Below, piece by piece: positions 1 to 23,704 of a stretch of DNA of 41,745 bases; the first letter of the stretch is position 1; every line of letters begins with the position of its first letter. A program made the position numbers and the translations under genes. The stretch is from positions 1-41,745 of the forward strand of contig JBDTOH010000001.1 of the NCBI GenBank assembly GCA_039933355.1. Reading direction: 5' to 3'. The notes below the pieces were generated by a model, which was not told where the DNA came from, did no database searches, and saw only the letters and a list, made by a program, of their open reading frames with translations. This DNA is from Gemmatimonadota bacterium (GTDB taxonomy: Bacteria > Gemmatimonadota > Gemmatimonadetes > Gemmatimonadales > GWC2-71-9).

Positions 1-156
1 GTCGGAAATCGGAAGTCGGAGGGATTGGCGCGACTGGGCAAGAGAGGCAGCGGAGGTGCCCGTGGCCTTGCCTCCCAAGCGGCCCCGATTCCGACTTCCG
101 ATTTCCGACTTCTGATCGCCAACTTCCTACTTCCCGCTTCCGATGCTACAATCCCC
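1..156. repeat. heptamer-periodic inverted repeat element, copy A (left arm cut by the window edge)
   Basis: Positions 1-20 (GTCGGAAATCGGAAGTCGGA) are the perfect reverse complement of 100-119. The right side continues as ~9 degenerate heptamers (CCGAYTT-like) over 94..156. It shares 13-nt and 17-nt identical blocks with the element at 13918..14000. Confidence 0.85.
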
Positions 157-195
157 GGTTCGGTAGCCTGTCGGTTCCTTTCACCTCCGTTACAA

Positions 196-1608
196 ATGGA
201 TTCTTCGTTCGTCTCTCGCAACCAGGACCGGATGCTCAAGGAGCTGACCGAGTTCCTGTCGATTCCGAGCATCAGCGCGCTGCCCAATCATGGGCGCGAT
301 TGCGCTCGCGCCGCTGCCTGGCTGGTTGATCACTTGAAACGGCTTGGGTGCCCGGTAGCCGAGGTGCTCGAAGACCGGGACCATCCTGTCGTGTGGGCCG
401 AAAGCCCGCGCGTCGATGGCGCGCCCACGCTGCTGATTTACGGCCACTACGACGTGCAGCCGGTCGATCCCGTCAGCGAGTGGGTCTCGCCCCCGTTCGA
501 GCCGACCCTCCGCGACGGCAAGCTCTACGCCCGCGGCGCCGCCGACGACAAGGGCCAAGTCTACTGCCTGCTCAAGGCGTACGAATCGGTGTTAGGCGCG
601 GACGGACTGCCGCCGGTGAACGTCAACTTTATCATCGAGGGCGAGGAAGAGAGCGGCGGCAGAGTCATCGAGGAGTTGCTGACCCGCGAGCCGGACCGGA
701 CCCGCGCCGACGCCGTCCTCGTCTGCGACATGGCCTACTTCGCGGAGGGAATACCGGCCGTCTACACCGCGCTCCGCGGGCTCTGCTACGCCGAGATCCA
801 TGTCCGCACCGCGGACCGCGATCTCCACTCGGGAACCTACGGCGGTGTCGCGCCGAACGCCCTCGAAACGCTGGTCCGCATCTTGGCCGGCCTCAAATCG
901 CGCTCCGGCGAGATCGAGATCCCCAAGCTCTACAAGTCGGTCAAGAAGCCGTCGAAACCCGAGGCGAAGGCGTGGAAGAAGCTCCCGTTCGACCAGAAGA
1001 AGTTCTTAGCGGAAGAGCTCACCGCGCGCGGTATGACCGGTATCAAAGACTACTCCGTTTTCGAGCGGACATGGGCCTTGCCTACCTTCGAGATCCACGG
1101 AATTCGGGGCGGCTTCGCCGGCGAGGGGGCGAAGACCGTGATCCCGGCCCAGGCTATGGCCAAGGTCAGCCTGCGACTCGTCCCGGGCCTGTCCTTCGAG
1201 AAGGTCGCCCGGTGGCTCACCCGCGCGATTGAAAAGCTGACGCCGAAGTTCGCCGAGGTGGAGGTCAAGATCCTCCATGGCGGTGATCCCGTGGAGGTCG
1301 ACGTGGGCGCTCCGGCGTTCGGCGTTCTCGACGACGCGTTCGAGGCGGTCGCGGGACGGCGAGCCGTGACGGTTCGCGCCGGCGGTTCGATCCCGGTGAT
1401 CCCGCTGCTCGCGATCTCCGGAGCACCGGTGATCCTGACCGGCATCGGGCTCCCGGACGATGGGCTCCACTCGCCTAACGAGAAGCTGAACCTGACCCAG
1501 TTGTGGGAAGGTGTGGACGTCTTTGGAAGGTTTCTCGAGGGGCTGCGGGCGGTTCGGGCCGACGAGGAGAAAGGGGAGAAGGAGGAGAAGCAGAAGGAGG
1601 AGTCTTAG
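196..1608 (+). CDS. M20 family metallopeptidase (dipeptidase; ArgE/DapE/ACY1/CPG2 family)
   Basis: The longest ORF (25..1608) begins at a TTG inside a repeat element. The homologous part starts at ATG 196 (MDSSFVSRNQ...). M20 hallmarks HYDVQP and ARGAADDKGQ are present. The C-terminal tail is Glu/Lys-rich. Confidence 0.85.
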   Translation: MDSSFVSRNQDRMLKELTEFLSIPSISALPNHGRDCARAAAWLVDHLKRLGCPVAEVLEDRDHPVVWAESPRVDGAPTLLIYGHYDVQPVDPVSEWVSPPFEPTLRDGKLYARGAADDKGQVYCLLKAYESVLGADGLPPVNVNFIIEGEEESGGRVIEELLTREPDRTRADAVLVCDMAYFAEGIPAVYTALRGLCYAEIHVRTADRDLHSGTYGGVAPNALETLVRILAGLKSRSGEIEIPKLYKSVKKPSKPEAKAWKKLPFDQKKFLAEELTARGMTGIKDYSVFERTWALPTFEIHGIRGGFAGEGAKTVIPAQAMAKVSLRLVPGLSFEKVARWLTRAIEKLTPKFAEVEVKILHGGDPVEVDVGAPAFGVLDDAFEAVAGRRAVTVRAGGSIPVIPLLAISGAPVILTGIGLPDDGLHSPNEKLNLTQLWEGVDVFGRFLEGLRAVRADEEKGEKEEKQKEES

Positions 1609-2147
1609 CTGTCCGCTCCCGGATTGGGCTTCTTGTACCCGCCCGAATAGCGCGCGTGCAGCTCGTCGACGCCGATCACCGCGCGGACCGAGGCGATGAT
1701 CCCCGCTACAACGTCGTCGGCCCAGTAGTCGTCGGGACGATCCTGGGCCGGGAGCTGCTTCGACTTCGTTTCCAGAAACCGGATGGCCGTGGCGATCCAG
1801 TCGTTCTGGGCCGTCTCGACCAATGACCATGATGCTGTCGCCCGAAGCTCGAGCTCCGACAGCTCCTCCAGCAGCTGACCGATTTCCTCCGTCACTTGCT
1901 GAGACCGCAGCCGCTCGGCGACGAGGGTGAGCGTCGTGCTGCGCTCGGTCTCTTGCGGCTCCGGCAATGGCGGCAGGTAGTGACGTTGGTCGGCCACCAT
2001 TTCGGCGAGCCGAACGCACACCGCCCGAATGGAGGGGGTCAGCGCCGCAGGGGCCTCCCTCGCCCAGCTGGCGGCGGCGCGGAGGATACTCCGGACCGTC
2101 TCGTCAGCCATTTCTACCAGCTTGCTGTGGTCCAGGGCGTTCGCCAT
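1605..2147 (-). CDS. hypothetical protein (180 aa, helical, no family recognised)
   Basis: The ORF is 1605..2264. The plausible start is ATG 2147 (MANALDHSKLVEM...). A TATATAC box ends 11 nt upstream and there is no Shine-Dalgarno. The stop overlaps the convergent peptidase stop by 4 nt. Confidence 0.55.
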   Translation of the reverse strand: MANALDHSKLVEMADETVRSILRAAASWAREAPAALTPSIRAVCVRLAEMVADQRHYLPPLPEPQETERSTTLTLVAERLRSQQVTEEIGQLLEELSELELRATASWSLVETAQNDWIATAIRFLETKSKQLPAQDRPDDYWADDVVAGIIASVRAVIGVDELHARYSGGYKKPNPGADS

Positions 2148-2150
2148 AAG

Positions 2151-2164
2151 GCGAGAAGTATATA
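2151..2164 (-). promoter_or_regulatory. TATATACTTCTCGC box (candidate -10 region; near-leaderless start of the 1605..2147 gene)
   Basis: The minus strand reads CCC-T-TATATACTTCTCGC-CTT-ATG, so the TATATA hexamer ends 11 nt before the ATG. No SD is present. The 14-mer is identical to the one at 16847..16860. Confidence 0.45.
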
Positions 2165-2200
2165 AGGGAGGAGGGACAGCGGAGGAGGGGGGGTAGGGCC

Positions 2201-2818
2201 TTATTTCCTTGGTCCCCGCCGCATTCGAACCGGATCGGCACGGCCGTACCGCTCTTCGGCCCATGGATCGCCCCTCATATGATAGCCGTTCTGCTCCCAG
2301 AAACCCGGCGTATCCTCCTCGATGAGCTCAAACCCGGTCAGCCATTTGGCGCTCTTCCAGAAATAGAGATGGGGGACCAGGAGTCGTACCGGGCCTCCAT
2401 GCTCGGGCGTGAGCGGCTCGCCGTTGTGCGCGAGCGCGACGAGGTTGGCGGGGCGGTCGAGATCCTCGATCGGCAGGTTGGTGGTGTAGTCGCCGGCACC
2501 GTGAACCAGGACGGTCGTAGCCTCCGGCTTGGGCTTCGCCCGCTCGATCAGCGACCGGACCGGGATTCCCTCGAACACGTTGTCGAAGCGGCTCCACCGG
2601 GTAACGCAATGGATGTCGCAGAGCGACTCCTGCTTGGGAAGCGCGTTCAGTTCCTCAAAGGATAGGGAGAAAGGGTTTTCGACCAGCCCATACACCTCAA
2701 AGCGCCACTGGGCCGGATCGATGATCGGAACGTGGCCATAGTGGAGCACCGGCCATTTCTGAGTTTGAATCTGACCCGGTGGTAAACGCCGGGTGGACGG
2801 ACGGGCATCGAGGCGCAT
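2201..2818 (-). CDS. molybdopterin-dependent oxidoreductase, sulfite-oxidase-like catalytic domain (YedY/MsrP-like fold)
   Basis: 205 aa with an ATG start. It carries the conserved Mo-ligand cysteine context IHCVTRWSR and the C-terminal WEQNGYH motif typical of the oxidoreductase molybdopterin-binding family. Confidence 0.8.
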   Translation of the reverse strand: MRLDARPSTRRLPPGQIQTQKWPVLHYGHVPIIDPAQWRFEVYGLVENPFSLSFEELNALPKQESLCDIHCVTRWSRFDNVFEGIPVRSLIERAKPKPEATTVLVHGAGDYTTNLPIEDLDRPANLVALAHNGEPLTPEHGGPVRLLVPHLYFWKSAKWLTGFELIEEDTPGFWEQNGYHMRGDPWAEERYGRADPVRMRRGPRK

Positions 2819-2823
2819 GGAGA

Positions 2824-2979
2824 AGGGCTAGGGTTTAGGGCTTAGGAGCTTAAGGTTTAGAGCCTGGCAAATAGCGATGAGCATCAGACAACAAAATAAC
2901 GCTCTCTCTCCGCTGCCGGTTCCCACGTGGGTCAAACCCTGAGCCCGAGGCCCTAAGCCCTGTGCCCTAAGTCCTTCTC
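2824..2979. repeat. heptamer-periodic inverted repeat (GGGYTTA-type arms around a ~70-nt lower-GC core)
   Basis: The left tract 2824..2865 has ~6 units (AGGGCTA GGGTTTA GGGCTTA GGAGCTT...). The right tract 2938..2979 has ~6 complementary units (CCTGAGC CCGAGGC CCTAAGC CCTGTGC CCTAAGT). The best perfect pairing is AGGGCTTAGG/CCTAAGCCCT. The core contains the palindrome CCCACGTGGG. Confidence 0.8.
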
Positions 2980-4212
2980 CGAAAACCGCGCTACGATCGC
3001 CGTCACCCCCATGTCCCCCGTGACGTTGAGCACCGTGGCGAACAGGTCCGGGATCGCGTCCACCGCGATCAGGATTCCGATCCCGGCAGGCGGCAGCCCG
3101 ATCTGGACGAACAGCGGGGTCAGCATCAGGAAGGCGCCTCGCGGCACGCCGGGGGTCGCGAAGCTCAGCACCACGGCCGCGAACGCGATCGTCGCGATTT
3201 GGGCCAGGCCCAGGTCGACGCCGTAGAACCACGCGATGAATGTCGATCCCACCATCCACGACACTGGCGCCGCGTACTTGAAGGTCGAGACGGCGAGCGG
3301 CAGAACGAACCGGGTCACCGGCTTCGGAAGAGCCAGCTCCCCCTCGGCACCTTCTGTGAGCGCCGGCAGCGAGGCGATCGAGGAGCTCGAGCTGAACGCG
3401 ATCAGTTGGGCCGGCAGGGTCGCCTTGGCGAAACGAGCCATCGGAACCCGACCAAGCAGCGCGACAATCGGGTAGGTCAGCAGCACGAAGACCAGCGAAG
3501 CCACCGAATACGCCAGGATGTAGCCGCCGAGCGCGCCGGCGACTGCGATCCCCGTCGTCGCCGTGATAGAGAACATGAGTGCGAACACGCCGATCGGCGC
3601 CAGCGCGATCACCCCTCGCACCAAGGTCAGCATCGTCTCGGAGAGCGCTCGAAAGAATCCTAGAAGAGTCGCCCGCGACTCCGGCGGGCTCTTCGCTACG
3701 GCAAGTGCGAACAGCACCACGAAGATGATGAGCGGCACCATGGCGCCGTCGGCGGCGGCACGAAACGGGTTGGTGGGGAGGAGGCCCGTGATCCACTCGG
3801 CGGCTGTCGGGACTTGGCTCACGCCGCTGGCAATCTGTCCGGCCGCCTCTGCCGCCCCGGGGGGGAGCGCGGCGGGTGCTTCTGCGCGATGAGGAAGCAG
3901 CTTGATCGCCTGGAGAGCGACCAGACCCATCAAGACGGCGTTCATCGTCCCGAGACCGATGAACGCGACCAGCGTTCGTCCGCCGAGCCGGCCGACATCC
4001 TTGAGATCGTTGGCCGACGCGACACCGGTCACCAGCAGCGAAATGACCAGTGGGATGACCGTCATCCGAATGGCATTGACCCAGAGGGCGCCGACGGGCG
4101 CAAGGCCTCCGGCCAGCTTTTGGCCGAAGCTGCTACCGGACCACGCCACTATCCCGCCCAGAACGAGGCCGAGGAGCAGCGCGAAGACCACGAGTCGAGT
4201 TCCCTTCATCAC
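2953..4212 (-). CDS. dicarboxylate/amino acid:cation symporter (DAACS family, GltP/DctA-like)
   Basis: 419 aa polytopic membrane protein with a sodium:dicarboxylate symporter family sequence pattern throughout. The last ~8 codons lie inside the heptamer repeat arm at 2938..2979. Confidence 0.85.
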   Translation of the reverse strand: MMKGTRLVVFALLLGLVLGGIVAWSGSSFGQKLAGGLAPVGALWVNAIRMTVIPLVISLLVTGVASANDLKDVGRLGGRTLVAFIGLGTMNAVLMGLVALQAIKLLPHRAEAPAALPPGAAEAAGQIASGVSQVPTAAEWITGLLPTNPFRAAADGAMVPLIIFVVLFALAVAKSPPESRATLLGFFRALSETMLTLVRGVIALAPIGVFALMFSITATTGIAVAGALGGYILAYSVASLVFVLLTYPIVALLGRVPMARFAKATLPAQLIAFSSSSSIASLPALTEGAEGELALPKPVTRFVLPLAVSTFKYAAPVSWMVGSTFIAWFYGVDLGLAQIATIAFAAVVLSFATPGVPRGAFLMLTPLFVQIGLPPAGIGILIAVDAIPDLFATVLNVTGDMGVTAIVARFSEKDLGHRA

Positions 4213-4239
4213 GCCCCTCTCTCGAGCTGAGCCGGCGAC

Positions 4240-4983: not shown

Positions 4984-4986
4984 CGG

Positions 4987-7900
4987 TTAGTGCTCGCCCG
5001 CGGCGGGCTTGGGAGTCTCGGTGAGACCGTATGGCGCGTCGGTCTTCTTCTGGCGCGGCCACAGCTCGTCCATCGTGTTGCCGTCGTAGAGCCGACCGTT
5101 TTTCATCACCCAGGTGATGGTGTTGGTGTTCTGGATGTTGTCGAGCGGGTTCTTGTCCATGACGATCAAGTCCGCGAGCTTGCCCGGCTCGAGCGAGCCG
5201 AGATCGCCGTCCAGGCCTAACGATTGGGCGCCGGCCAGCGTGGCCATCCGGAGCACGTCGTGGTTCGGCATTCCGCCCGACGCCACCGACCGAAGCTCCC
5301 AGTGGTATCCGAGCCCTTGGAACTCGCCGTGGCTCCCGATGCCGATCTTGCCGCCCATCTTCACGATGTCCGCCGCGACCTTCGCGGTCTGGGGGAAGAT
5401 CCACTCGTCGTCCATGAACCAGCCGCCGGGACCGGGGCCGACGCCCTGGCCGCGGCGGCGAGTCTTGGAGGCCAGCTCTTCGTACGGCATGAACCGGCGG
5501 ATCTTGGGATCGTTATAGGGCTTGTCGTGGATGAAGTAGTAGTCTTCGCCCCACGGCCCGCCATATTGCACGATGAGAGTCGGCGTGTACTCGATGCCGG
5601 ACTTCGCGTACATCGTCACGACATCCTTGTAGAGCGGGACGGTCGGAGTGGCGTGCTCCTGACCCGGATAGCCGTCGACCAGCATCGTCAGGTCGTACTT
5701 GGTATCGATCGATCCTTCGGTCGTCGGCATGATGTTGTTTTCACGGGCCGCCATGATCACCCATTGGCGCACCTGACGATTTCCCTTGACGTACATCTTG
5801 ATGTACTTGGTGTCCCAGTACTGGCTGTACTTCTTCATGACCTTACGAGCATGATCGAGATCGCGGATCTGCTCCTGCCAATAGCCGACACCCGTGCTGG
5901 TGGAGTAGATCCTCGGCCCGATCATCTGGCCGGCGTCCACCGCATCGCCGTATGAGACGACGTCGCTGGCTCCGGTCTGGGGATCCCGGGTCGTGGTCAC
6001 GCCGTACGCCAGGTTCGCCAGATACATCCAGGGCTGCTGTTTGTGGAGGCCCCAGGTGGGCCACATGTGCGAGTGGGTATCGATAAAGCCCGGCACGATG
6101 GTCTTCCCCGACACGTCCATGACCTTGGCGCCACTCGGCGCCTCTCCCCGCGGCCCCACGCTCACGATTCGGTTGTTGCGGACCACAAGGTCGGCATTCT
6201 CGACCACCTCCGAGCCGCGCATGGTGATCACCCGCGCTCCTCGAAGCACGACGGTGCCTTGTGGAATGTCGAGCGGGGCCCGAATCACGATCTTGGTTTC
6301 GACCGGCTCGAACGTCCGCTTCGAGAGTGAATCGGTCCGCGCCTTGCCCGCTGCGGTGGTGTCCCCCTCGAGCGCCTTCTTGTCCGCCTCGATCTTCCGA
6401 TCGAATGCCCGAGCCGAGTCGAGGTCATACGTGAAGAACGCGCTGCCTAAGCTCCAATGGATCTTCTTGCCGTCGGAGCTCCAGGTGGGGAACTCACCGC
6501 CGATATCCGTGAGGCGGCGGGCAGGGACGGTTGCCGCCTTTGGATCCTGAATCGAAACCGTCGGCGCCTCGCCTCCCACCTGCGGCACGGTCACGACATA
6601 GACGTCGAACCCGCTTTGGATCAGCGCTTGGTCGCCGGTCGGTCCCATTACGGCGACGTCGGCCGGACCGGGCTTCTCCTGGTTGAGGAGCATCGGCGCC
6701 GTCACCTTGAGATAGCGTTTTTGATCGGTTCCATCCCACCGAACCGAGACGAGCCCGCTGTCGCCGGCCCAGAGATAGATCCGGTTCGGGTCCCGCGTGA
6801 AGTGCGGGTTACCGCGGCCGAAGGTCGGCGTGATCAGCGTGGTCGCCCCGCCATTCGCCGGAACCGAGATGAGATCGACGTTGGTGCCGGGCGCGCCGGG
6901 CCCGTCTTCGAGCCGGCGCGGCTCCGCGGGGCCACGGATCACCGCGAGGCGGGTGCCGTCGGGTGCCCATGCGGGCTGCGTGTACGTCGCCTTCTCCGTC
7001 ACGAGCGCGACCGGCGCGCCGGTGCCGTCCGCGCGCGTCTTGTAGACGGTGCCGCCCTCCTTTTGCCAGCTCACGTACCCGACCCATTGACCGTCGGGAG
7101 ACCAGGTCGGCTCGGCCTCGATCATATCGAGCTTGGTGAGCCGCCGGGGCGTCCCGTTAGGCAGGTCCATGAGATAGAGCCGGTCGAGCCCGGTGAACAC
7201 GAGCTGCTTCCCGTCGGGCGACGGAACGGCGTCTCGAATCTGGTGAATCGAGAACTGAGCGCTGTCGCGGATCGGATACTTGAACGCGACCTCGGGCCCC
7301 AGGTCCATCTTCGTCTGGACCCGGAACGGCACCGCGCTCGGCGCGCCGCCGTCGATCGGCACCCGCCAGATCTTGCCGCCGTACGTCGTCACCAGCTCCT
7401 TCGAGTCCGGCGTGAACGACATCCCCGGGTAGGCGTCGCGGCTCGGAATCGCTTCCTGATCGTCGCGCTGGACCGGATAGGCCAGCCACTTCTCGTCGCC
7501 CGACTTCATGTCGCGGAGGACGAGGCCGGTCTTGGTCTCGAACCGAGTGGCGTACACCATCCACTTACCATCGGGCGAGAGCGTCGGCCGGATCGCGGAG
7601 CCGAACCGCGACGTCCGAGTCTCGCGGAGCCCGGTCTCGCGATCGTACACCGCGATCTGGTACTGAGGGAAGATTGCGTTGTACTGCCACGCTCCCTGGC
7701 GCTGCGCGTACCAGATATAGCGGCCGTCCGGACCGAAAGCCGCGCCGGTTGTCATCCCGTTCTCGGGCGTCTTGATGAGCTGAATTCCGGAGCCACCGTC
7801 GATGTGGAACATCCAGAGCTTCGCCGGCTTGAACACGATGTCGCCCACGCTCGCGACGATGTATTTCCCGTCCGGCGTCCACTCGGGCGACTGGATGATC

Positions 7901-9724: not shown

Positions 9725-9964
9725 GTGGGTCTACTCTGGACAATTCTCATCGGTTTCGTGATCGGTTCGCTGGCCAAATTCCTGCTCCCCGGCAAAGATC
9801 CCAGTGGCTTCTTGGTTACCACCCTCCTCGGCATCTGCGGCTCGTGGTTTGGCTCGTGGATCTTCGGGCTGGTAGGCTGGGGAGGCGGGGCCGGATTCAT
9901 CGGGTCGGTGATCGGAGCGGTGTTGCTGCTCGTGATCTATCGAGCGGTGAAGAACAAGAGCTAG
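9725..9964 (+). CDS. GlsB/YeaQ/YmgE family stress-response membrane protein (transglycosylase-associated)
   Basis: 79 aa (VGLLWTILIGFVIGSLAKFLLPGKDP...GSVIGAVLLLVIY), typical of the family. The start is GTG 9725, 4 nt after GGAGG. Confidence 0.75.
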   Translation: MGLLWTILIGFVIGSLAKFLLPGKDPSGFLVTTLLGICGSWFGSWIFGLVGWGGGAGFIGSVIGAVLLLVIYRAVKNKS

Positions 9965-9965: not shown

Positions 9966-10064
9966 GGGAATAGGGAATGGGGAATCGGGAATCGAACACG
10001 CGAAGGGGCGCTCACCGTACCCCGATCCGTCGTCTCCATTCCCGATTCCCCATTTCCTATTGCC
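9966..10064. terminator. heptamer-periodic long hairpin filling a convergent intergenic gap (candidate bidirectional terminator)
   Basis: The left arm (9966-9993) is GGGAATA GGGAATG GGGAATC GGGAATC. The right arm (10037-10064) is CATTCCC GATTCCC CATTTCC TATTGCC. Complementarity is 25 of 28 positions, with a 43-nt loop. The element sits exactly between the glsB-like stop (9964) and the lpdA stop (10064). Confidence 0.75.
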
Positions 10065-11458
10065 TACGTATGAATCACCCTCCCCATCGAATCCAAACAA
10101 GCTTCAGCGATCGCCTCCGACAGCGTCGGGTGCGCGTGAATCGCGAGATCGATCTCCTCGACCGTGTACTCGTTCTCCCGCCCGACGACCAGCTCGTGGA
10201 TCATCTCCGAGGCGTGACTCGCGACGATGTGGGCGCCGAGAATCTCGCCGTACTTCTTGTCGCGGATGATCTTCACGAACCCCTCCGTCTCCATCGAAGC
10301 CCGGGCCCGGCCGTTCGCTGACATCGGAAAGCGGCCGACCTGGAAATCGAGCTTCTGCGCCTTACACTGATCCTCGGTGAGCCCGATGCTCGCGACCTCT
10401 GGATGGCAATACGTCACGCTCGGCACGTTGTCGTACATGATCCGGTGCGGCTTGTGCCCGGCGATCAGCTCCACGACGTAAGTGCCCTCCCGGCTTCCCT
10501 TGTGCGCCAGCATGGGGGGACCCGCCACGTCACCGATGCAATAGACCCCTTTCGCGGTCGTCTCGAGCGTCGCCAGGTCGACTTTGACGAAACCGCGATC
10601 GGTGAGCTCGACGCCCGCTTCCTTGAAGCCCATGTTCTCAGTATTGACCGCTCGGCCCGCCGCCATCAGGACTTTGTCGACGGTGATCGTTTCCTTCTGG
10701 CCGGCGGTTTCGATTTCCAGCGTGACACTCGCCGGGCCGACCGTTGCCTTGAGAACTTTGGCGCCCGCGAGCACCGTCATTCCGCGCTTCCTGAAGCTCT
10801 TGGCGATGACTTCCGACGACTCGGCATCCTCGATCGGGAGAATCCGGGGAAGCGCTTCGATCAGCGTCACCGCCGTGCCAAAGGCGTTGAAGATATCGGC
10901 GAACTCGGTGCCGACGGCCCCGGCGCCGATGATCGCGAGCGACGCCGGCGCCTTGTCGAGAAAGAGCGCCTCGTCGGAGCTGATCACCGTCGTCTTGTTG
11001 ATCTCGAGGCCGATCTGCGGGATGCCTTTCACGCGCGACCCGGTGGCGATGATGACCGCCTTGGTGGCGGTGTGCGTCTCGTCGCCGACCTTGACCTTCT
11101 TTCCGGGAAGAAGGGTGCCGGCGCCCTTGATGACCGTGACCTTGTTCTTCTTCATCAGGAACTCGACGCCTTTCGAGTTCTGCTCGGATACCTGGCGCGA
11201 CCGCTTCATCGCGACACCGTAATCGGTCGTGACCGCCCCGACTCCGATGCCGAGGGCTTTGGCATCGTGCCGGATCACGTTCGCCACGGACGCGCTCTGA
11301 AGCAGCGCCTTGGTCGGGATGCAACCGATGTTGACGCACACGCCGCCGAGCTTGTCCTTCTCCACCACCGCGGTGGAGAGCCCGAGCTGGGCGGCGCGGA
11401 TAGCGCACACGTAACCGGCGGGACCGCCGCCGAGGATGATGACGTCGAAGGTGGACAC
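10064..11458 (-). CDS. lpdA: dihydrolipoyl dehydrogenase (E3)
   Basis: 464 aa. It has the FAD motif GGGPAGY, the redox-active disulfide GGVCVNIGCIPTK, and the C-terminal HAHPTLSE. The start is GTG 11458 with GGAG 7 nt upstream. Confidence 0.92.
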   Translation of the reverse strand: MSTFDVIILGGGPAGYVCAIRAAQLGLSTAVVEKDKLGGVCVNIGCIPTKALLQSASVANVIRHDAKALGIGVGAVTTDYGVAMKRSRQVSEQNSKGVEFLMKKNKVTVIKGAGTLLPGKKVKVGDETHTATKAVIIATGSRVKGIPQIGLEINKTTVISSDEALFLDKAPASLAIIGAGAVGTEFADIFNAFGTAVTLIEALPRILPIEDAESSEVIAKSFRKRGMTVLAGAKVLKATVGPASVTLEIETAGQKETITVDKVLMAAGRAVNTENMGFKEAGVELTDRGFVKVDLATLETTAKGVYCIGDVAGPPMLAHKGSREGTYVVELIAGHKPHRIMYDNVPSVTYCHPEVASIGLTEDQCKAQKLDFQVGRFPMSANGRARASMETEGFVKIIRDKKYGEILGAHIVASHASEMIHELVVGRENEYTVEEIDLAIHAHPTLSEAIAEACLDSMGRVIHT

Positions 11459-11472: not shown

Positions 11473-11539
11473 GGGTTCGGGGTTCGCGACCTGGGGACTG
11501 GGGACTGGGGACTGGGGACCGGGGTTCCGAGCTCCGAGC
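11473..11539. repeat. tandem heptamers in the E2-lpdA intercistronic spacer: (GGGTTCG)x2, (CTGGGGA)x4, (TCCGAGC)x2
   Basis: Read directly, and confirmed by the translation SPVPSPQSP of ORF 11462..11644. On the transcribed (minus) strand the central unit is CCCCAGT. The plus strand carries 5 GGGG runs with 3-nt spacers (11493..11524). Confidence 0.85.
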
Positions 11540-11550
11540 CGCGAACGGTT

Positions 11551-12894
11551 TCACCACACCAGCGCCAGGGGGTTCTCCAGCATCATCTTCACGGTCCTGA
11601 GGAATGCGGCGCCGGTCGCTCCGTCGATCACCCGGTGATCGCACGACATCGTCACCCGCATTCGCCGCTGCGGCATGATCTGCCCGCCGACCACCGTCGG
11701 CACCTCCGCGATCCGGCCGATGGCGAGAATGCCGGACTCCGGCGGGTTAATGACGGCGGTGAAGTGCTCAATGTCGAACATCCCGAGGTTCGAGATCGAG
11801 AACGTCGCGCCGGTGTACTCCTCGGGCTTGAGCTTGCGCTCGCGCGCCCGCCCGGCCAACTCCTTCGATTCCGCGCTGATCTCGCGGAGCGACTTCTGAT
11901 CGGCGTTCCGGATCACCGGCGTGATCAGGCCGTCCTCGACCGCGACCGCCATGCCGACGTGAACCTCGTTCCAGTACCGGATCTTGTCGTCTTGCCACCA
12001 CGCGTTGCAGGCGCGATGCTGCCGAAGCGCCGCGGCGACCGCCTTCACCACGATGTCGTTGAACGACACCTTGCCCGCGTCGCCGGCCTGCGCCTTGAGC
12101 GCCTCCCGCGCGTCCCACGCGCGTTCCATGTCGATCTCGGCGGTGAGATAGAACGTCGGGATCGGACCGATCGATTGGGCCAGGCGCTTGGCGATGGTCT
12201 TTCGGATCTGCGTGAGCGGGACATCCTCGAACGGTGCGCCGGACGTGCGAATCGGTGCGCGCGGTGCGGCCCCTGTCGCTGCAACGGGCGTGGGCGCTGT
12301 GGTTGGGACAGGGGTGGGCGTTGCTTTGTCGAGATCCCGCTTGATGATCCGTCCTTCTGGCCCCGACCCCGCCACTCCCGCGAGGTCGATCCCCTTGTCC
12401 GACGCGATCTTCTTGGCGAGGGGCGATGCCTTGATCCTGCCGTCGATAGCACCCGCCCCTCCGCCGGGCTGAGCCTTCGCGGATTGGGCCGGCGTGGCCG
12501 CATCCGCCGCCGCGGGAGCTTCACGCGCCGGAGGCGCTTCAGCAGCCGGCGCTGACTCGGCGGCCGGCGCCGCCGCGGTCTCACCTGCCGCCTTGCCGCC
12601 TTGCCGCCCTGCCGCCTGCCCTGCCGCCGCGGCCCCATCGTCCCCCACGGCTTCACCGGCAGCGCCAATCCACCCGACCAGTGAGGATACGGGAACCGTC
12701 GCCCCCGCAGCGACCACCTGCTTGAGCAGCTGGCCCGCAGCCCGCGCGACCAGCTCCATCACCGCCTTGTCCGTTTCCACCTCCGCGAGCACATCCCCGA
12801 CCGCGACCGCGTCGCCTTCCTTCTTCTTCCACTCGACGAGGCGTCCCTCCTCCATGGTCGGCGAAAGAGCCTCCATCACGATCTTCGTCGCCAT
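11551..12894 (-). CDS. pdhC: pyruvate dehydrogenase E2, dihydrolipoamide acetyltransferase (single lipoyl domain)
   Basis: 447 aa. It has a lipoyl-lysine motif (ETDKAVMEL), an Ala/Pro/Gly linker, a peripheral-subunit-binding domain (ASPLAKKIA), and the catalytic DHRVIDG. Confidence 0.9.
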   Translation of the reverse strand: MATKIVMEALSPTMEEGRLVEWKKKEGDAVAVGDVLAEVETDKAVMELVARAAGQLLKQVVAAGATVPVSSLVGWIGAAGEAVGDDGAAAAGQAAGRQGGKAAGETAAAPAAESAPAAEAPPAREAPAAADAATPAQSAKAQPGGGAGAIDGRIKASPLAKKIASDKGIDLAGVAGSGPEGRIIKRDLDKATPTPVPTTAPTPVAATGAAPRAPIRTSGAPFEDVPLTQIRKTIAKRLAQSIGPIPTFYLTAEIDMERAWDAREALKAQAGDAGKVSFNDIVVKAVAAALRQHRACNAWWQDDKIRYWNEVHVGMAVAVEDGLITPVIRNADQKSLREISAESKELAGRARERKLKPEEYTGATFSISNLGMFDIEHFTAVINPPESGILAIGRIAEVPTVVGGQIMPQRRMRVTMSCDHRVIDGATGAAFLRTVKMMLENPLALVW

Positions 12895-12928: not shown

Positions 12929-13906
12929 CTAGACATACAGCACCTGCTTCACCGCGGCGATCACTTTCGGCACGTCGACCTTGGAGGCCCGCTCCAGCGT
13001 CTTGTTGTACGGCATCGGAACATCCGCGCCCGTGACGCGAATGATCGGGGCGTCGAGCGAATCGAAGGCGTTGCGCTGGATCACGTCGACCACCTGCGCG
13101 CCGACCCCGGCAAACGGCCAGCCCTCTTCCGCGACGACGCACCGGTTGGTCTTGACGATCGATGCAAGAATCGCTTCGGTATCGAGTGGGCGGATCGTCC
13201 GGAGGTCGAGCACTTCGGCCTTGATCCCTTCTTCGGCGAGCTGATCGGCGGCTTTGAGCGCGATCGCCACGGTCTTCGAGTGACAGACGATCGTGACATC
13301 GGTGCCCGCCCGCTTGACCTCTGCTTCGCCGATCGGAGTCAAGTACTCCTGATCCGGCACGTCGCCCTTCTGATTGTAGAGCATCTCGCCTTCGATGAAG
13401 ACGACCGGATCGTCGTCGCGGATCGCGCTCTTCAAGAGGCCCTTGGCGTCCGCCGCGGTCGCCGGGGTCACGACCTTGAGCCCTGGGATGTGAGCGTACC
13501 AGCTCTCCCATGACTGACTGTGCTGCGCCGCGAGCTGGAGCGCCGAGCCGCCGGGCCCGCGGAACACGATCGGGATCGAGAACTGCCCGCCCGACATGTA
13601 GCGGATCTTGGCGGCGGAGTTGACGATCTCGTCGATCGCGAGGAGCGCGAAGTTCCAGGTCATCATCTCGATGACCGGCCGGAGCCCCACCATCGCCGCT
13701 CCCACGCCGATTCCCGTAAACCCCAGCTCGGCGATCGGCGTATCAACGACGCGCTTCGGTCCGAACTCCTTGAGAAGCCCGCGGCTCACTTTGTACGCCC
13801 CGTCGTACTCCGCGACTTCCTCGCCCATGAGGAAGACCCGGTCGTCCAGCTTCATCTCTTCACGGAGCGCCTGATTCAGCGCATCGCGGTAGGTGATGAC
13901 GGCCAT
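12929..13906 (-). CDS. pdhB: pyruvate dehydrogenase E1 beta subunit
   Basis: Homology starts at ATG 13906 (MAVITYRDALNQALREEM), preceded by GAGGAG. The upstream part of the ORF (to 14023) is translation of the repeat element. Confidence 0.9.
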   Translation of the reverse strand: MAVITYRDALNQALREEMKLDDRVFLMGEEVAEYDGAYKVSRGLLKEFGPKRVVDTPIAELGFTGIGVGAAMVGLRPVIEMMTWNFALLAIDEIVNSAAKIRYMSGGQFSIPIVFRGPGGSALQLAAQHSQSWESWYAHIPGLKVVTPATAADAKGLLKSAIRDDDPVVFIEGEMLYNQKGDVPDQEYLTPIGEAEVKRAGTDVTIVCHSKTVAIALKAADQLAEEGIKAEVLDLRTIRPLDTEAILASIVKTNRCVVAEEGWPFAGVGAQVVDVIQRNAFDSLDAPIIRVTGADVPMPYNKTLERASKVDVPKVIAAVKQVLYV

Positions 13907-13917
13907 CAGGATCTCCT

Positions 13918-14000
13918 CGGAAATCGGAAGGCGGAAATCGGAAGTGAGGACATCACGAGGTCCCCCCGGTTTCCGGTTTCCGATTTCCGACTTCCGTCGC
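13918..14000. repeat. heptamer-periodic inverted repeat element, copy B, at the pdhA-pdhB junction
   Basis: The left arm is CGGAAAT CGGAAGG CGGAAAT CGGAAGT (13918-13945). The right arm is CCGGTTT CCGGTTT CCGATTT CCGACTT (13966-13993). About 21 of 24 positions pair in the best register. The pdhA stop lies in the loop, and the pdhB SD directly follows the element on the mRNA. Confidence 0.85.
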
Positions 14001-16821: not shown

Positions 16822-16836
16822 CCCCCCGCCTGAGAT

Positions 16837-16860: not shown

Positions 16861-17057
16861 AGTTTCCGCAAGGACCCTCGGCGATGGCGACAAAGTAGGC
16901 GTCTGCATGGCCTCAAAGTCGCATGCCAGAAACTCTCGCGCGTAACCCGAATCTCGCAGGGGCGGACCGACAAGACGCAGCGGCGCCGGGCGGATTTGCC
17001 GGCGACTCCCCGCTATGTTCCGCAGTCCAATCCAACGACTCCAAGGCGTGGCATCTC

Positions 17058-19967: not shown

Positions 19968-21163
19968 TGCGCGAGCAGCCGCTTCACGGTCTCCCGCATC
20001 TCGGCGATCTGCCGCTCGTACTGCGCGCCGGTCGCCGGCCCGCGAAACCCGGCGTACACCTGCTTGACCCGCCCGTCGCGCCCAATGAAGATCGAGGTGG
20101 GGTAGGCCGTGAAGCCGGTGAGCTGCGGCAGCGTGGCCGCCGTCGCCTCCACGTCGTTGAGGCCGCCGCGGAGCAGCAGGTACGGGATCTTGAATTTGTC
20201 GCGGAAGCGCCGGATCATCCGGTTGTCCGTCGCGCTGTCGCCGCTCACCTCGTACGCGAGGCCGATCACTTCGAGCCCCTTCGCGTGGAACTCCCGATGG
20301 AGATCGACCAAGGTCGGCGCCGCGTCGTGGCAGGTCGGGCACCAGGTGCCGAAGACGTCGATCAGCACCACCTTGCCCCGAAATCGCGGGTCGCCGTTGC
20401 TCACCATCGCGCCGGCCAGGTCGGGAAACGAGAACCGGAACGGGTTGACCGTGTCCGCGCGGGTTAGCTCGGTCGGCGCGATCAGATGGGACCGGCCCGT
20501 GCTCCGCACCGCGGTGAACGGCGTCCGGGTCCGCACCCCCGCGTTGAAGACACCTCGGAGGGTATCGCCGTCGAGCCGTCCGGCCGCCAGATAGACGAAG
20601 CTCCCGTCGAAATGCGCGACGACAAAGCTGTCGGCCGACGCCCGGCCGGAGAAGAGGCCGTAGTCGCCGCTGTTTGCCTGGAAGGAAGCCTCGAGCCCTT
20701 GGGGCCCGTTTCTGAACTCGAAGACCCGCGGGCTCTTCCGCCCGTCGGTGACGAAGGTCGCGTCCCAGCTGCCTAACAATGTCGCCGGCGCCTTGGAGAT
20801 CGGCCAGCTCCCGCGCGAGGCCCGGAACGGAATCGCCCGCGGGCCCCGATTCCCTACGTTCCGGTACATGCCGACGAGCGAATCGCCCCGCTGGCCCACC
20901 GTGATGGTCGCGGCATAGTCGGCCATGTCGAAGACGACCGAGTCACCCTGTGCCACGACGCCGCTCAGATCCGTGCAGCTCAGTCCGTTGCAGATCCGGC
21001 CGGTGAGCCCGGGGCGCCCACGGGTTAGGGTGAGCGAGAACGGGAGCGCGCCGCCGGCGAGGTCGAGCACCGCGCGCCAGGAGCCCGGAAGCGAATCGGC
21101 GGCCGGGCCGGGCCCGACGCCGATCAGGCTCGCGACGACCGCCGCCGGCCACAGCAAGGTCAT
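19964..21163 (-). CDS. TlpA-like thiol:disulfide oxidoreductase (thioredoxin fold) with a ~230-aa N-terminal beta-rich domain
   Basis: Starts at ATG 21163 (MTLLWPAAVV...), overlapping the upstream stop as ATGA. The C-terminal thioredoxin domain has the active site WCPTC. Confidence 0.8.
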   Translation of the reverse strand: MTLLWPAAVVASLIGVGPGPAADSLPGSWRAVLDLAGGALPFSLTLTRGRPGLTGRICNGLSCTDLSGVVAQGDSVVFDMADYAATITVGQRGDSLVGMYRNVGNRGPRAIPFRASRGSWPISKAPATLLGSWDATFVTDGRKSPRVFEFRNGPQGLEASFQANSGDYGLFSGRASADSFVVAHFDGSFVYLAAGRLDGDTLRGVFNAGVRTRTPFTAVRSTGRSHLIAPTELTRADTVNPFRFSFPDLAGAMVSNGDPRFRGKVVLIDVFGTWCPTCHDAAPTLVDLHREFHAKGLEVIGLAYEVSGDSATDNRMIRRFRDKFKIPYLLLRGGLNDVEATAATLPQLTGFTAYPTSIFIGRDGRVKQVYAGFRGPATGAQYERQIAEMRETVKRLLAQ

Positions 21164-22002
21164 ATCGGCGGCGCCGACTGACCGCCGCCCGCATAACGCT
21201 CGCCCGCGTCCACCGCGGCCGGCACCGTGTTGCCACGCCACGGCGCGGGGCAGGGGTAGACCGTGCTGTAGGCGCAGAACGGGTTCCGTGCCCGGTTGAA
21301 GTCGAGCACATAGCGGCCGTCGCCGGTGGGAACCAGCGACACGAACCGGCCCGCCGGATAGCTCCCGGACCCGTTGGTCCCGTCGCGAAAGTAGATCTCG
21401 AGCTCCGATTCCTCGGCTCCCGTCGGAAACCGGAACACGCGGAGCCGGACAGTCTGGGCGCCTACGGTCACTTGAACCCGGCCGGCCTCGGTCGCCTGGG
21501 CCTCGACGCCGTCCGACCCGAGCAGCGGGACCGCGCTCGGCACCGTAACCGGATCGAGCGTCACGATCTGGCGCCACGCCGGCCGATAGTCGAAGTGGGT
21601 CGGCAGCTTGACGCTCTTCGGAGTCCGCCCGTAAAAAGTCGCCACTTGGCGCCCGGGAAGGCCCGCGACGACGAGCTGATAGTCGCCCAACGCGACGGCG
21701 CGGTTTCCCGGAACCGGCCGGCGATTTCCGCCGCCGACCAGCACGACGGGGCCGCTCCTGTCTTGGAGCAGTTGGGTCGCGCCGACCCCTTCGAGCGGGA
21801 TGTCGCTCCCCGGCGGGCCCACCGTCAGCCCGGGGCCGATCGCTTGCTGGGTGAGGGCGCGGAGCGGCGAAACCCCCGCGGTCCTGAGCCACGTTGCGAA
21901 GTCGGAGCGCTCCCGTGCGAGGTCGCTCGGCACTTGCGCGGCGAGCGGCCCGCTCCCGGCGGCGACCGCGACGAGCAGAGCCAGAAGTCGGCGGCGATTC
22001 AC
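21160..22002 (-). CDS. DUF1684 domain-containing protein, secreted
   Basis: GTG start at 22002, with signal peptide MNRRRLLALLVAVAAGSGPLAAQ. The C-terminal signature YPAGRF...DFNRARNPFCAYSTVYPCPAP...AGE is typical of DUF1684. Confidence 0.75.
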   Translation of the reverse strand: MNRRRLLALLVAVAAGSGPLAAQVPSDLARERSDFATWLRTAGVSPLRALTQQAIGPGLTVGPPGSDIPLEGVGATQLLQDRSGPVVLVGGGNRRPVPGNRAVALGDYQLVVAGLPGRQVATFYGRTPKSVKLPTHFDYRPAWRQIVTLDPVTVPSAVPLLGSDGVEAQATEAGRVQVTVGAQTVRLRVFRFPTGAEESELEIYFRDGTNGSGSYPAGRFVSLVPTGDGRYVLDFNRARNPFCAYSTVYPCPAPWRGNTVPAAVDAGERYAGGGQSAPPI

Positions 22003-22006
22003 AGCG

Positions 22007-22798
22007 TTAGGGCCCCGCGACGGAACCGAACATGATCACCGGTGTGGTCGGCTGGAGCGACCCACCGGTCGGTTCCACCGTGACCGCGGCCGCGTTGAAC
22101 CCTCCGCCGGGCGGAAGCTCGAAAGAAGTGACGAGCGCGTGACCGTCCGGACTGGAATTGAACGTGACCGATGGGATCGGCTTCCCGTCTCGCATCAGCC
22201 AGAGCTGGTAGACCTTCCCCGCCGGCGCGGGCGTGAGCCGGAAGGCGTGGACGATCGCTTCGTTCGACCGTTTGTTCCAGAAGAACTGAATGCCGGGCGC
22301 CTGTGCCCCGACCGCCGCCAGCCGGACCAGGCTCAAGTCGTGCTCGGCCATGAGCACGGTATTCAACGTCCGCTCCCTCGCGGTGAGCTTGGCGTCGCTC
22401 GCGGCGAGCGCGCGGCGGAGATCCGCGATCGCCGTCTCCCGCTCACTGACCCCCTGTCTGAGCGACCAGGCCCAACCGGCCAGGCCCGCGGCCAGCAGCA
22501 GGCTCGCCGCCAGACCGATCTTGAGCGGCAGGCCGCTCGACGGTCGCGGAGCCGGGAGCACGACCACCTTCTCATCCCGGACCGAAGCCATCAATCGCTG
22601 CTTGAGCGCCGGGCTCGGCTTGGGCCCGGAGCGGAGGTTGAGGAGCGCGTTGACCTCGCGAAGCTCGGCCACCTCCCGCCCGAGCTCCGGCGACTGACCC
22701 AGCGCCGCTTCGAACGCGCGGGTCTCCTCCGGAGTGAGCGCGCCTAACGCGTATCCGGGGGCCAGCTCGCGCAGACTGTCGAGTTCGGCGGGTGTCAT
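22007..22798 (-). CDS. anti-sigma factor, RskA (anti-sigma-K) family
   Basis: It has an N-terminal anti-sigma domain (LAPGYALGALTPEE), one TM helix (LKIGLAASLLLAAGLAGWAW), and a C-terminal RskA-like domain (VYQLWLMRDGKPIPS). The ATG overlaps the sigma gene stop as ATGA. Confidence 0.75.
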   Translation of the reverse strand: MTPAELDSLRELAPGYALGALTPEETRAFEAALGQSPELGREVAELREVNALLNLRSGPKPSPALKQRLMASVRDEKVVVLPAPRPSSGLPLKIGLAASLLLAAGLAGWAWSLRQGVSERETAIADLRRALAASDAKLTARERTLNTVLMAEHDLSLVRLAAVGAQAPGIQFFWNKRSNEAIVHAFRLTPAPAGKVYQLWLMRDGKPIPSVTFNSSPDGHALVTSFELPPGGGFNAAAVTVEPTGGSLQPTTPVIMFGSVAGP

Positions 22799-23466
22799 AG
22801 TCGGGTCGCGAAGTAATAGGGGCGAAGCGTGTCCCGGAGCTTCTGCATGCCGAGCCGCACCCGGGTCTTGATCGTGCCGAGCGGCTCCCCCAGCCGTTCC
22901 GCGATCTCGGACTGGGACAACCCCTCGTAGAACGCCAGCTCGATCGCCTGTCGCTGCGGCCCGCTCAGCTCGGTGAGGGCCGTGGCCACGTGTCTCCTCC
23001 GCTCCTCCTCATCGACAGTCATCGGTTGTTCGGCTTCCCATCCCCCCATGCCGGGCGCCGCCTCCGGCTCGGCCGCCTGCGCATTCTCCACCAGACGAGC
23101 GCGCCGGCCTCGGGCCCGCACCAGATCGAGAGAGCGGCTCCGGCACATCATCGTGAGCCAGGCGGCGACCGAGCCGCGCTCGGAGCGGAACCGCACGGCC
23201 TCGCGCCAGGCTTGCGAAAACGCCTCGAGCACCGTCGCCTCGGCGTCGGCCTGCTCGCCGGTGATCCGGTAGGCGACGGCATAGAGCGCACTTCCATAAC
23301 GGTCGTAGAGCGCACTCAGCCCGGCCTCGTCGCCGCGCGCCATTCGTTCGAGCAGCGACCGGTCGTAGTCCGCCCCAGGCGTAGCTGGGGCAGTCACCGT
23401 GGTCCGGCGACGGGTCGCATCCATAGGGGAAAGATCGGACGCCGGCGTGATAGCATGGATCACCAT
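22795..23466 (-). CDS. ECF-type RNA polymerase sigma factor (SigK-like)
   Basis: Sigma-70 region 2 is present (YDRYGSALYAVAYRITG..AEATVLEAFSQAW), and region 4 has an HTH (LSQSEIAERLGEPLGTIKTRVRLGMQKLR). The start is ATG 23466 or ATG 23424. Confidence 0.85.
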   Translation of the reverse strand: MVIHAITPASDLSPMDATRRRTTVTAPATPGADYDRSLLERMARGDEAGLSALYDRYGSALYAVAYRITGEQADAEATVLEAFSQAWREAVRFRSERGSVAAWLTMMCRSRSLDLVRARGRRARLVENAQAAEPEAAPGMGGWEAEQPMTVDEEERRRHVATALTELSGPQRQAIELAFYEGLSQSEIAERLGEPLGTIKTRVRLGMQKLRDTLRPYYFATRL

Positions 23467-23570
23467 TGTATCGCCTTCCCATGCCGGGCGTCTACCCCTT
23501 GGACTCCGCGGATCACCCTTCTTGTCTAACTACGGTGCGGTGGCGGAGTTGGATGCATTGGCCGCGGGGC

Positions 23571-23669
23571 CTGGAACCGGGACCGGGACCGTCCCGCGAA
23601 GCTCCGAGTACCAGTGGCCGACCAGGTTGGTTCCTGGTTCCTGGTTCCTGGTTCCTGTTCCTGGTTCCG
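23571..23669. repeat. tandem heptamer tract (GGTTCCT x4, then GTTCCT and GGTTCCG) with a partially complementary GGAACC/GGGACC tract upstream
   Basis: The tract at 23629..23669 is confirmed by the ORF translations (LVPGSWFLVPVPGS and WFLVPGSWFLFLVP). The left tract CTGGAACCGGGACCGGGACC is at 23571..23590. A C-run-rich segment follows to ~23700. Confidence 0.8.
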
Positions 23670-23704
23670 CGTCCCCCGGTCCGCCGTCCCCATCCCCCCT
23701 TCCA

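Follow-up and report, generated by a model that had tools for sequence, protein, structure and literature searches.

Heptanucleotide repeat hairpins with site-specific units at gene borders and in coding linkers of Gemmatimonadota

Tandem heptanucleotide arrays form a little-studied class of bacterial repeats known from Xanthomonas and cyanobacteria. As reported by papers that cite it, a survey by Mrazek et al. (2007) found that heptanucleotides outnumber all other long simple repeats in most genomes, counted the high-GC Burkholderia, Actinobacteria and Xanthomonas among the richest genomes and proposed that polymerase slippage favored at 7 nt accounts for the heptamer excess (cited in PMC4679880, PMC4692102). 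Each Xanthomonas genome contains 183–186 arrays of the GGGAATC type, 89–93% of them intergenic, and 70–75 convergent inverted pairs of such arrays that are able to form stem-loops and adjoin or overlap stop codons; the arrays are of different length in different species and were not associated with mobile elements (Rehm et al., 2015; PMC4692102). Experiments on what heptamers do are few and inconclusive (Nostoc recF/recO preprint), and heptamers and Gemmatimonadetes are not mentioned by Huang and Mrazek (2014). Here we analyze a 41,745-nt stretch of DNA, the window, from a soil bacterium of the order Gemmatimonadales, phylum Gemmatimonadota (GenBank assembly GCA_039933355.1, contig JBDTOH010000001.1, positions 1 to 41,745), in which six loci consist of tandem heptamers, most of them arranged as complementary hairpin arms. 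An earlier note on this DNA had held that tandem heptamers are known only from heterocystous cyanobacteria and that hairpin-forming arrays are undescribed in high-GC bacteria, which is contradicted both by the Mrazek survey, as cited, and by the Xanthomonas pairs. The elements of the window extend this repeat class, each site having its own unit. Our literature search found no description of Gemmatimonadota repeats, of many-unit genomes, of handedness statistics or of array pairs in coding linkers.

Applied to the whole window, Tandem Repeats Finder (TRF) detects period-7 arrays at all six loci for which the earlier note had claimed them, and no period-7 tract from position 23668 to the end of the window. 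A self-match scan, in which 21-nt windows had to be at least 80% identical to the sequence p bases ahead, likewise yielded six period-7 tracts, as compared to zero to four for other periods that are not multiples of seven; all four tracts with period 6 belong to a single large coding region (33.9–37.2 kb). In 100 dinucleotide-preserving shuffles the number of period-7 tracts was 0.38 on average and 3 at most. The loci are made of head-to-tail 7-nt copies in runs longer than expected by chance, and the observation is confirmed as real and far above chance. The suggestion that the period is constant and the unit varies by locus is borne out as well, as five unit types are distributed over the six loci, with loci 1 and 5 having one in common. 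A chance or assembly-artefact origin of the tracts has a practically negligible probability, given the six tracts against 0.38 in shuffles, the recurrence of the same architecture in well over 40 genomes and metagenome contigs that different projects had assembled independently, and the fact that array-containing reading frames stay open. The GC content of the window is 66%.

How are the heptamers arranged? Four of the six loci are strong hairpins of complementary heptamer arms, locus 6 is a weak one, and locus 4 has just one array, enclosed by a stem of other heptamers. The claim of complementary arms at five loci therefore holds clearly for loci 1, 2, 3 and 5 and weakly for locus 6. The most complete hairpin is locus 3 (9966..10064), in which the arms 9966-9995 (GGGAATN x4) and 10035-10064 are 90% complementary and enclose a 39-nt loop (TRF arrays 9966-9994 and 10036-10054). 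This element is the whole 99-nt gap between two convergent stop codons, 9962-9964 of a Transgly_assoc gene on the plus strand and 10064-10066 of lpd/E3 on the minus strand, and its predicted folds of −64.6 and −61.8 kcal/mol have z-scores of −8.8 and −7.4. Locus 3 also borders, together with loci 4 and 5, the genes of a minus-strand 2-oxoacid dehydrogenase operon encoding E1alpha, E1beta (12929-13912), E2 (11551-12894) and E3/lpd (10064-11458; all by Pfam). Locus 5 (13917..13996) lies at the E1alpha-E1beta junction, with arms at 13917-13943 and 13966-13996 built from CGGAAAT/CGGAAGG units (TRF). Arms 13917-13941 and 13966-13990 are 88% complementary, and alternatives at 85% and 95% substantiate the slipped pairing registers that had been proposed. 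The E1beta start codon is at 13910-13912, and as the loop contains the stop codon of E1alpha (13953-13955), the last ~12 residues of E1alpha (...TEVGNRKPETGGTS) are encoded by the 5′ arm of the mRNA.

At locus 1 the G-rich arm (1..20; GTCGGAAATCGGAAGTCGGA, units CGGAAAT/CGGAAGT, TRF 2-20) is cut by the window edge and is followed by a C-rich array at 85..143 (CCGACTT/CCGATTT, ~8.6 units; TRF). Arms 1-20 and 90-109 are 100% complementary; the C-rich array is longer than its partner, with ~8 units against at least 3 in the part of the G-rich arm that lies inside the window. The element is upstream of an M20 peptidase gene starting near 196 (Pfam) and folds with −68 to −69 kcal/mol (z −3.5 and −3.8). 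Locus 2 consists of a degenerate G-rich array (2824..2860; AGGGCTT/AGGGTTT, ~5 units; TRF), which adjoins the start codon of a molybdopterin oxidoreductase gene (2201-2818, minus strand; Pfam), and a C-rich array (2937..2975; CCCTAAG, ~5.6 units; TRF), in which an SDF symporter gene (2953-4212, minus strand) ends with its last ~7 codons and stop codon (2953-2955). Thus, as the earlier note had stated, two elements supply the last codons of genes, the E1alpha tail at locus 5 and the symporter end at locus 2. Arms 2829-2846 and 2952-2969 are 83% complementary, and the predicted fold of −66.3 kcal/mol has a z-score of −5.1 on the plus strand and of −2.2 on the other. The folding-energy check on both strands which had been called for is strongest for loci 1, 3 and 5, with z-scores of −3.2 to −8.8 against shuffles.

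The remaining two loci are less regular. At the E2-E3 junction (locus 4, 11474..11546) an array of 4.9 CTGGGGA units (11491-11524, 96%; TRF) lies in the loop of a short outer stem formed by (GGGTTCG)2 at 11474-11491 and a (CGAGCTC)2-like sequence at 11523-11540; a complementary CTGGGGA arm was not found at this locus. The outer stem pairs well on the plus strand only, via G.U pairs, and the fold z-score is −2.8 on this strand and −1.1 on the mRNA strand. Locus 6 (23560..23674) has a right array of six TGGTTCC units (23628-23668, 94%; TRF) and a weak left partner (23570-23592); arms 23562-23588 and 23653-23679 are just 74% complementary, the left arm being a period-6 ACCGGG run, and the fold z-scores are −2.9 and −0.6. 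It is placed between a DUF6702 gene (stop at 23705) and the gene of an extracytoplasmic function (ECF) sigma factor (22795-23466), both on the minus strand, and is upstream of an ECF sigma/anti-sigma pair. The proposed placement of the elements at gene borders is therefore upheld by the convergent stop codons at locus 3, the operon junctions at loci 4 and 5 and the regulator pair at locus 6. Apart from locus 6 no comparable long intergenic palindrome is present between 14 and 41.7 kb.

Several properties of these loci would be consistent with the hairpin itself being the selected unit, that is, an intercistronic or 3′-untranslated RNA stem-loop that stabilizes the upstream mRNA, attenuates read-through without a U-tract or is cleaved by RNase III, the heptamers being the lineage's way of building stems. 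The predicted folds are strong, with z-scores down to −8.8, and locus 3 fits exactly between convergent stop codons. Moreover, double-strand-specific RNases need stems of 20–30 bp, the length available here. Locus 4, on the other hand, has a stem with better pairing in antisense orientation. Terminators of the classical type are no more frequent than expected: in the first 20 kb 8 hairpin-plus-U-tract terminators were found as compared to 10.3 expected from shuffles, and none was called at the five loci within this region. Similarly, sigma-70-like promoters are not enriched between positions 1 and 20000 (1 versus 1.9), and the genome apparently does not rely on classical terminator and promoter signals. 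An intrinsic (Rho-independent) terminator is ruled out as identity of the elements, since loops are 24–105 nt long, no T-run follows the arms and terminator calls are absent from the loci in the first 20 kb.

Could the elements be mobile? Being palindromic, intergenic and present in many copies, with the CGGAAAT/CGGAAGT unit at both locus 1 and locus 5, they recall miniature mobile elements spread by a transposase, such as MITEs (transposable elements of the miniature inverted-repeat type), repetitive extragenic palindromic (REP) sequences or REPIN-like elements. Yet no sequence, loop or terminal motif is common to the loci, the copy number per arm is variable, and the arms found inside the E2 gene (see below) flank an ancestral coding domain. 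In addition, the Xanthomonas repeats are not associated with mobile elements (Rehm et al., 2015; PMC4692102). Pfam revealed no transposase domain among the 20 window ORFs scanned (1-25916), and no Rfam family matches anywhere in the window. REP/REPIN elements are ruled out by the lack of a sequence common to the loci and of an Rfam match, and MITEs by loops that are unrelated between loci and by an E2 "loop" that is an ancestral protein domain. Spread by a transposase is consequently barely plausible, and the argument that neither REPs nor terminators would produce one period with many units was a fair one.

To see how far the elements extend beyond the window, comparison loci, designated by L and a number, were gathered with the Lpd protein as query, so that all comparative DNA is centered on one operon; gene calls in these loci are crude (GC3-based), and the assignment of elements as intergenic or coding is secure for the dehydrogenase operon alone. 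Lpd orthologues with 68–84% identity were found in ~30 Gemmatimonadales/Gemmatimonadota genomes, and ~55 metagenome contigs were added. In 552 kb of Gemmatimonadota genome loci, 70 period-7 tracts compare with 18 for period 8, 14 for period 9, 8 for period 6 and fewer for other periods, so that the expected excess of period 7 is seen in related DNA as well as in the window. Loci from other phyla, retrieved with the same query, contain 23 period-7 tracts in 873 kb, about half of them from one Chloroflexi genome. When a complementary partner was sought within ~260 nt of each tract, 40 paired elements were obtained for the window and the Gemmatimonadota genome loci (594 kb), 47 for the Gemmatimonadota metagenome loci (314 kb) and 9 for other phyla (1.04 Mb), which amounts to 87 paired elements in the Gemmatimonadota sets (~0.9 Mb). 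Heptamer hairpins are lineage-wide, occurring in dozens of related genomes, and the trait varies within the order Gemmatimonadales, where loci L004, L005, L007, L008, L012, L014-L016, L019, L028 and L029 are devoid of period-7 tracts. In the classified cases, which depend on the crude gene calls, the 5′ arm mostly starts between −17 and +9 nt from the end of the upstream ORF and the element ends 15–40 nt ahead of the next start codon. Such starts within about 10 nt of stop codons and ends shortly before the next gene are also what would be expected for a selected intercistronic stem-loop. Outside Gemmatimonadota, heptamer arrays were seen in L046, L080:6121-6195, L038 and L040. L046, 21 kb of a Chloroflexi metagenome-assembled genome, has 11 tracts with AT-rich units (GAATTAC, GATTTCA, GTTGGAA), some of them in short hairpins, and about ten copies of CCTAAAT/CCCAAAT are present in a Chlorobiota contig.

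The units themselves are diverse: 43 different consensus units were counted among 64 cleanly periodic arms. The units of G-rich arms resemble each other only loosely, with GG at positions 1-2, a high purine content and few C, and no position is conserved beyond the rotation chosen for the alignment. The arms are often unequal in length, with 13 versus 5 units in L021 and 3 versus 6 at window locus 6. It could be imagined that a protein reading DNA or RNA in 7-nt steps, such as a cold-shock-domain, S1, HutP-like or iteron-binding protein, imposes the strict period through its own register and tolerates a variable sequence within the loose GG-and-few-C pattern; binders of this kind have been put forward for TAACTGA repeats, and in Nostoc, too, a binding partner is suspected. 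This is improbable in view of the 43 different units, several of them within one genome, the lack of a conserved position, the sequestration of the arms in long duplexes, the toleration of arrays inside coding linkers, and the period-8 variants at the same sites. It has also been proposed for the Xanthomonas and Nostoc heptamers that they are regulatory repeats forming G-quadruplexes. Four or more G3-4 tracts at 7-nt spacing are present in each of the window's loci 2, 3 and 4, and the units GGGAATC and GGGGACT were shown to form G-quadruplexes in vitro (PMC4692102). Loci 1, 5 and 6, however, cannot form G3 quadruplexes, a canonical G-quadruplex motif occurs in only 19 of 87 G-rich arms, 25 of the 87 lack any G3 tract, and a paired G-rich arm has a fully complementary partner. 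As an explanation of the elements G-quadruplex formation is thus very improbable, and with a motif in 19 of 87 arms it is rejected as general principle; it could apply to a subset.

Comparison of orthologous junctions reveals how units are replaced. At the E2-lpd junction, 23 of 76 loci carry a period-7 hairpin with predicted folding energies of −23 to −91 kcal/mol, among others with the units GGATTGA, GGGAGAT, GGTGAGC, GGGGAAT, GGTAAGA, GAGAACA, GCGGAAC, GCGGATT, GGAGAGA, GCGGAAT, GGTCAGA and GGTGCGA. In four loci (L020, L027, L115 and L135) the hairpin has period 8, and about half of the 76 junctions are at most 47 nt long and unstructured. Close relatives have a unit in common at the same junction and differ, between species, in copy number and in the order of variants. 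That the period is constant and the unit differs by site and species follows if each site homogenizes its own unit. The distribution of junctions is bimodal, either short and unstructured or with a hairpin, and some heptamer-free relatives have ordinary GC hairpins at this position (L006 −51, L102 −30 and L015 −24 kcal/mol), both of which are in line with selection for a hairpin; that many relatives do without any hairpin at the same junctions is not. At the E1alpha-E1beta junction, the stop and start codons of ~40 relatives overlap or are 0–4 nt apart. An array or hairpin is inserted here in the window, L003, L011, L013, L018 and L047, each with its own unit, adding codons to the C-terminus and often the stop codon too. 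In L003 the G-rich array stands alone, which fits a sequence of events in which the array comes first and the partner arm later. The arrays could have been seeded by the local gene end, and GGTRAGN units after ...TGGTGA or ...TGGTAG look suggestive of this, but a formal comparison of each consensus with the in-phase 7-mer was not significant (p = 0.09) and no claim is made.

Heptamer arms are not restricted to gaps between genes. Thirty of the 74 elements in dehydrogenase operons are located inside the E2 reading frame, where the E3-binding domain is flanked by a G-rich array in the preceding linker and by the complementary C-rich array in the following one; the two arrays are 137–270 nt apart, and the E2 ORFs with such arms stay intact. 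Linker 1 encodes for example GMRDAGS or GSGERGA and linker 2 HPASPIPHP or PLPAPRSP. Arms of this kind were found in L020, L022, L023, L030, L013, L095-L100, L105-L115 and L131-L135; examples are L022:8941-9205 (...GGGMRDARGGMRDAGSGMRDAGG... and ...SHPASPIPHPAPS...), L098:3487-3783 (...DGQGAGSGEQGAA... and ...IPAPRSPLPAPS...) and L113:3424-3658 (...SGERGAVLNPGSGERGAV... and ...REVPLPAPRSPE...). The units differ by genome and the two arms co-vary: the pairing score is 23.6 on average for an arm with its own partner versus 10.2 with partner arms of other genomes, and at most two foreign arms outscore the own partner in any case. Moreover, ungapped stems of 49–63 nt in L107, L110 and L113 and of 32 nt in L030 include non-repeat sequence in all four cases, and such long stems, to judge from the sequence, look like inverted duplications. 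In the window, the E2 linkers (~12580-12630) contain period-8 and period-12 repeats and no heptamer arms.

A further property of the paired elements is their handedness. In 37 of 39 pairs the 5′ arm has more G than C and the 3′ arm more C than G (p = 3e-9), the same polarity is seen in 44 of 47 pairs of the independent metagenome set (p = 2e-10), and both sets together have 81 of 86 elements with the G-rich arm 5′. Since this property is unchanged when the other strand is read, it is not an effect of gene orientation. Among the nine pairs of other phyla such a bias is absent (3 versus 4). One clear reversed hairpin was seen at L002:4897-4959, with a CGCTATT arm 5′, an AATAGCG arm 3′ and an 11-nt loop. 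In L001, complementary arrays of CCGAGCG/CCGAGTG and GCTCGGC units (2574-2620 and 5686-5717) are 3 kb apart with the C-rich array first, and are either partners of opposite handedness or two independent single arrays. As a matter of speculation, a G-rich template in the second arm could stall the polymerase and provoke a switch to the nascent first arm; equally speculatively, the opposite polarity would expose C-rich, Rho-attracting RNA before its partner is made.

How could such elements arise? We favor, with modest confidence, that they are simple-sequence palindromes typical of the lineage which are made and maintained at the level of DNA. Briefly, replication slippage in a 7-nt register would multiply a unit into an array of 3–13 units, an inverted copy of the array would then be written 3 to ~270 nt downstream, and template switching or inverted duplication between the arms would keep the copy complementary. 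Template switching between arms is known from quasipalindrome correction. Each site would homogenize its unit independently, giving rise to locus-specific units, and purifying selection would confine the arrays to tolerant sequence. The arrays sit directly after stop codons, before the next ribosome-binding site, in C-terminal tails and in flexible interdomain linkers, and so settle where sequence constraint is low, as would be the case for a process blind to function. A mutational process at the level of DNA fits the data better than site-by-site selection of RNA structures, because there is one period with many units, because arrays are inserted into tight junctions, because arms are unequal and single arrays exist, and furthermore because the elements spread to tails and linkers, because complementarity extends into unique sequence and because arms co-vary without wobble intermediates. 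For the latter, stem mismatches were counted in sense orientation in the dehydrogenase operon elements, yielding 77 of the G.U type versus 93 of the A.C type (20 versus 17 in a smaller earlier count); an RNA wobble signature, that is an excess of G.U over A.C on the operon sense strand, was not found. Co-variation of arms without G.U excess is also what DNA-level copying is expected to produce.

The same evidence makes it unlikely that hairpins selected for their RNA structure are the primary cause, since G.U mismatches are not in excess, arms are often very unequal or single, many relatives have hairpin-free junctions, and the 30 elements inside the E2 frame have loops of 137–270 nt that would be held open by translation. 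Nevertheless, transcripts through the intercistronic loci must, according to the predicted folds, carry 20–30 bp stem-loops at cistron borders, which by analogy with REP elements and bacterial interspersed mosaic elements (BIMEs) in E. coli probably have the effects of generic stem-loops: protection of 3′-ends, partial termination or processing by double-strand-specific RNases. Because heptamer-free relatives have plain GC hairpins at the E2-lpd junction, a stem may be useful there and a REP-like role is plausible; any such role in RNA would be secondary to the process that makes the arrays.

Several observations weigh against a DNA-level origin. Slippage and conversion between arms are deduced from comparison between species, the closest relative found for a comparison of copy number being a metagenome contig with 86% Lpd identity. 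The plain GC hairpins at heptamer-free E2-lpd junctions argue for a hairpin selected in its own right, and the equal counts of G.U and A.C mismatches could simply reflect young, nearly perfect stems. Furthermore, the test for local seeding by gene ends was not significant. Both the polarity of the pairs and their occurrence in coding linkers point to a mechanism that acts on DNA and has a direction. More tentatively, it may be that Gemmatimonadales, and by extension Xanthomonas, possess an undescribed directional "palindrome writer" of reverse-complement 7-nt arrays with the G-rich arm 5′, an idea that is less probable than not. Such an activity would be linked to replication or repair, would place the copy a few to ~270 nt downstream and keep it up to date, and might be tied to the repertoire of polymerases and helicases; it would be strong enough to write into the linkers of an essential gene and to replace overlapping stop/start junctions, and would be neither plain neutral slippage nor selection of RNA hairpins.

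Other repeats were noticed in the window. A period-8 array at 27806-27833 (three copies of CTTGCCGC; GGCGGCAA-like and G-rich on the minus strand) directly follows the stop codon that ends ORF 27836-28939 on the minus strand, a placement as for heptamer arms. Another intergenic repeat type occupies 26851-27002 and consists of an inverted repeat, GTCATCCCGAGTGAG and CTCGCTCGGGATGAC, that is 93% complementary with a 61-nt loop, followed by a 27-nt tandem repeat in 2.7 copies (26929-27002). A similar motif, ...CTCGCTCGGGATGAG..., is part of the sequence inserted between E1alpha and E1beta in L136, and a related one, ...CGCTGCTCGGGATGAC..., is present at the E2-lpd junction of L009. Finally, tandem repeats with periods 6, 9 and 12 (GGACGG, CGACGG, CGCCGGCCGGAT) between 33900 and 38410 lie mostly in a 1346-residue ORF (34773-38813), the first of them (33916-33939) in the upstream ORF 33019-34542; these are in-frame coding repeats that bear no relation to the heptamer elements.

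The cause and role of the bacterial heptamer excess have been a question since 2007. Xanthomonas and Nostoc offer one or two units each, so that sequence-specific causes, such as G-quadruplexes or a binding protein, and mechanism-based causes are inseparable there. With dozens of units at orthologous sites, a strong handedness and natural "experiments" in the linkers of a coding gene, these questions become testable in Gemmatimonadota: whether the 7-nt register is a property of the replication machinery, whether inverted arms are copied from each other, and whether the stems are relevant to operon expression. The elements also give real proteins longer C-termini and repetitive linkers, and in soil metagenomes they are likely to mislead gene calling, terminator prediction and short-read assembly.

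How do the elements compare with known repeats? REP/BIME elements and REPINs of enterobacteria and pseudomonads are likewise palindromes between genes that occur at operon junctions and where gene ends converge and are transcribed within mRNAs; they differ in forming one conserved family per genome with a RAYT transposase, in lacking an internal tandem period and in having shorter, imperfect stems. The TAACTGA repeats of marine Beggiatoaceae resemble the elements as intergenic arrays of 2–6 heptamer units near gene borders but have one fixed unit, are direct except for one indirect case, lie just upstream of start codons and are AT-rich (MacGregor, 2015; PMC4679880). The short tandemly repeated repetitive (STRR) sequences and GGGGA(C/T)T repeats of Calothrix and Nostoc are similar as non-coding tandem heptamers with several units per genome. 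The CTGGGGA/GGGGACT unit of locus 4 is the complement of Calothrix STRR1. GGGGACT is also a Nostoc unit in Rehm et al. (2015), and the Nostoc repeats differ in having few inverted pairs (PMC4692102), arrays of up to 26 units and a genome context of low to medium GC content. In the survey of 5-11 nt repeats by Mrazek, Guo and Shah (2007), as described in the citing papers, the long repeats of non-pathogens with large high-GC genomes are most commonly heptamers, and these descriptions mention neither hairpins nor handedness nor arrays in coding linkers as seen here. The closest likeness is to Xanthomonas, a high-GC host with a GC content of about 65%, in which 7-nt periodic, G-rich arrays of ~4 units are overwhelmingly intergenic; GGGAATN of locus 3 is almost the same as its GGGAATC. 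As in Xanthomonas the arms form close convergent pairs, and placement next to stop codons is seen at window loci 2, 3 and 5. Xanthomonas pairs are "always" convergent with the G-rich arm 5′ (PMC4692102), as compared to 81 of 86 elements here. Unlike Xanthomonas, which has essentially one genome-wide unit (GGGANTN) that is read as G-quadruplex, the elements described here belong to another phylum, occur also inside a coding gene, and, instead of a single G-quadruplex-forming GGGANTN unit, have dozens of units most of which lack the capacity to form this structure.

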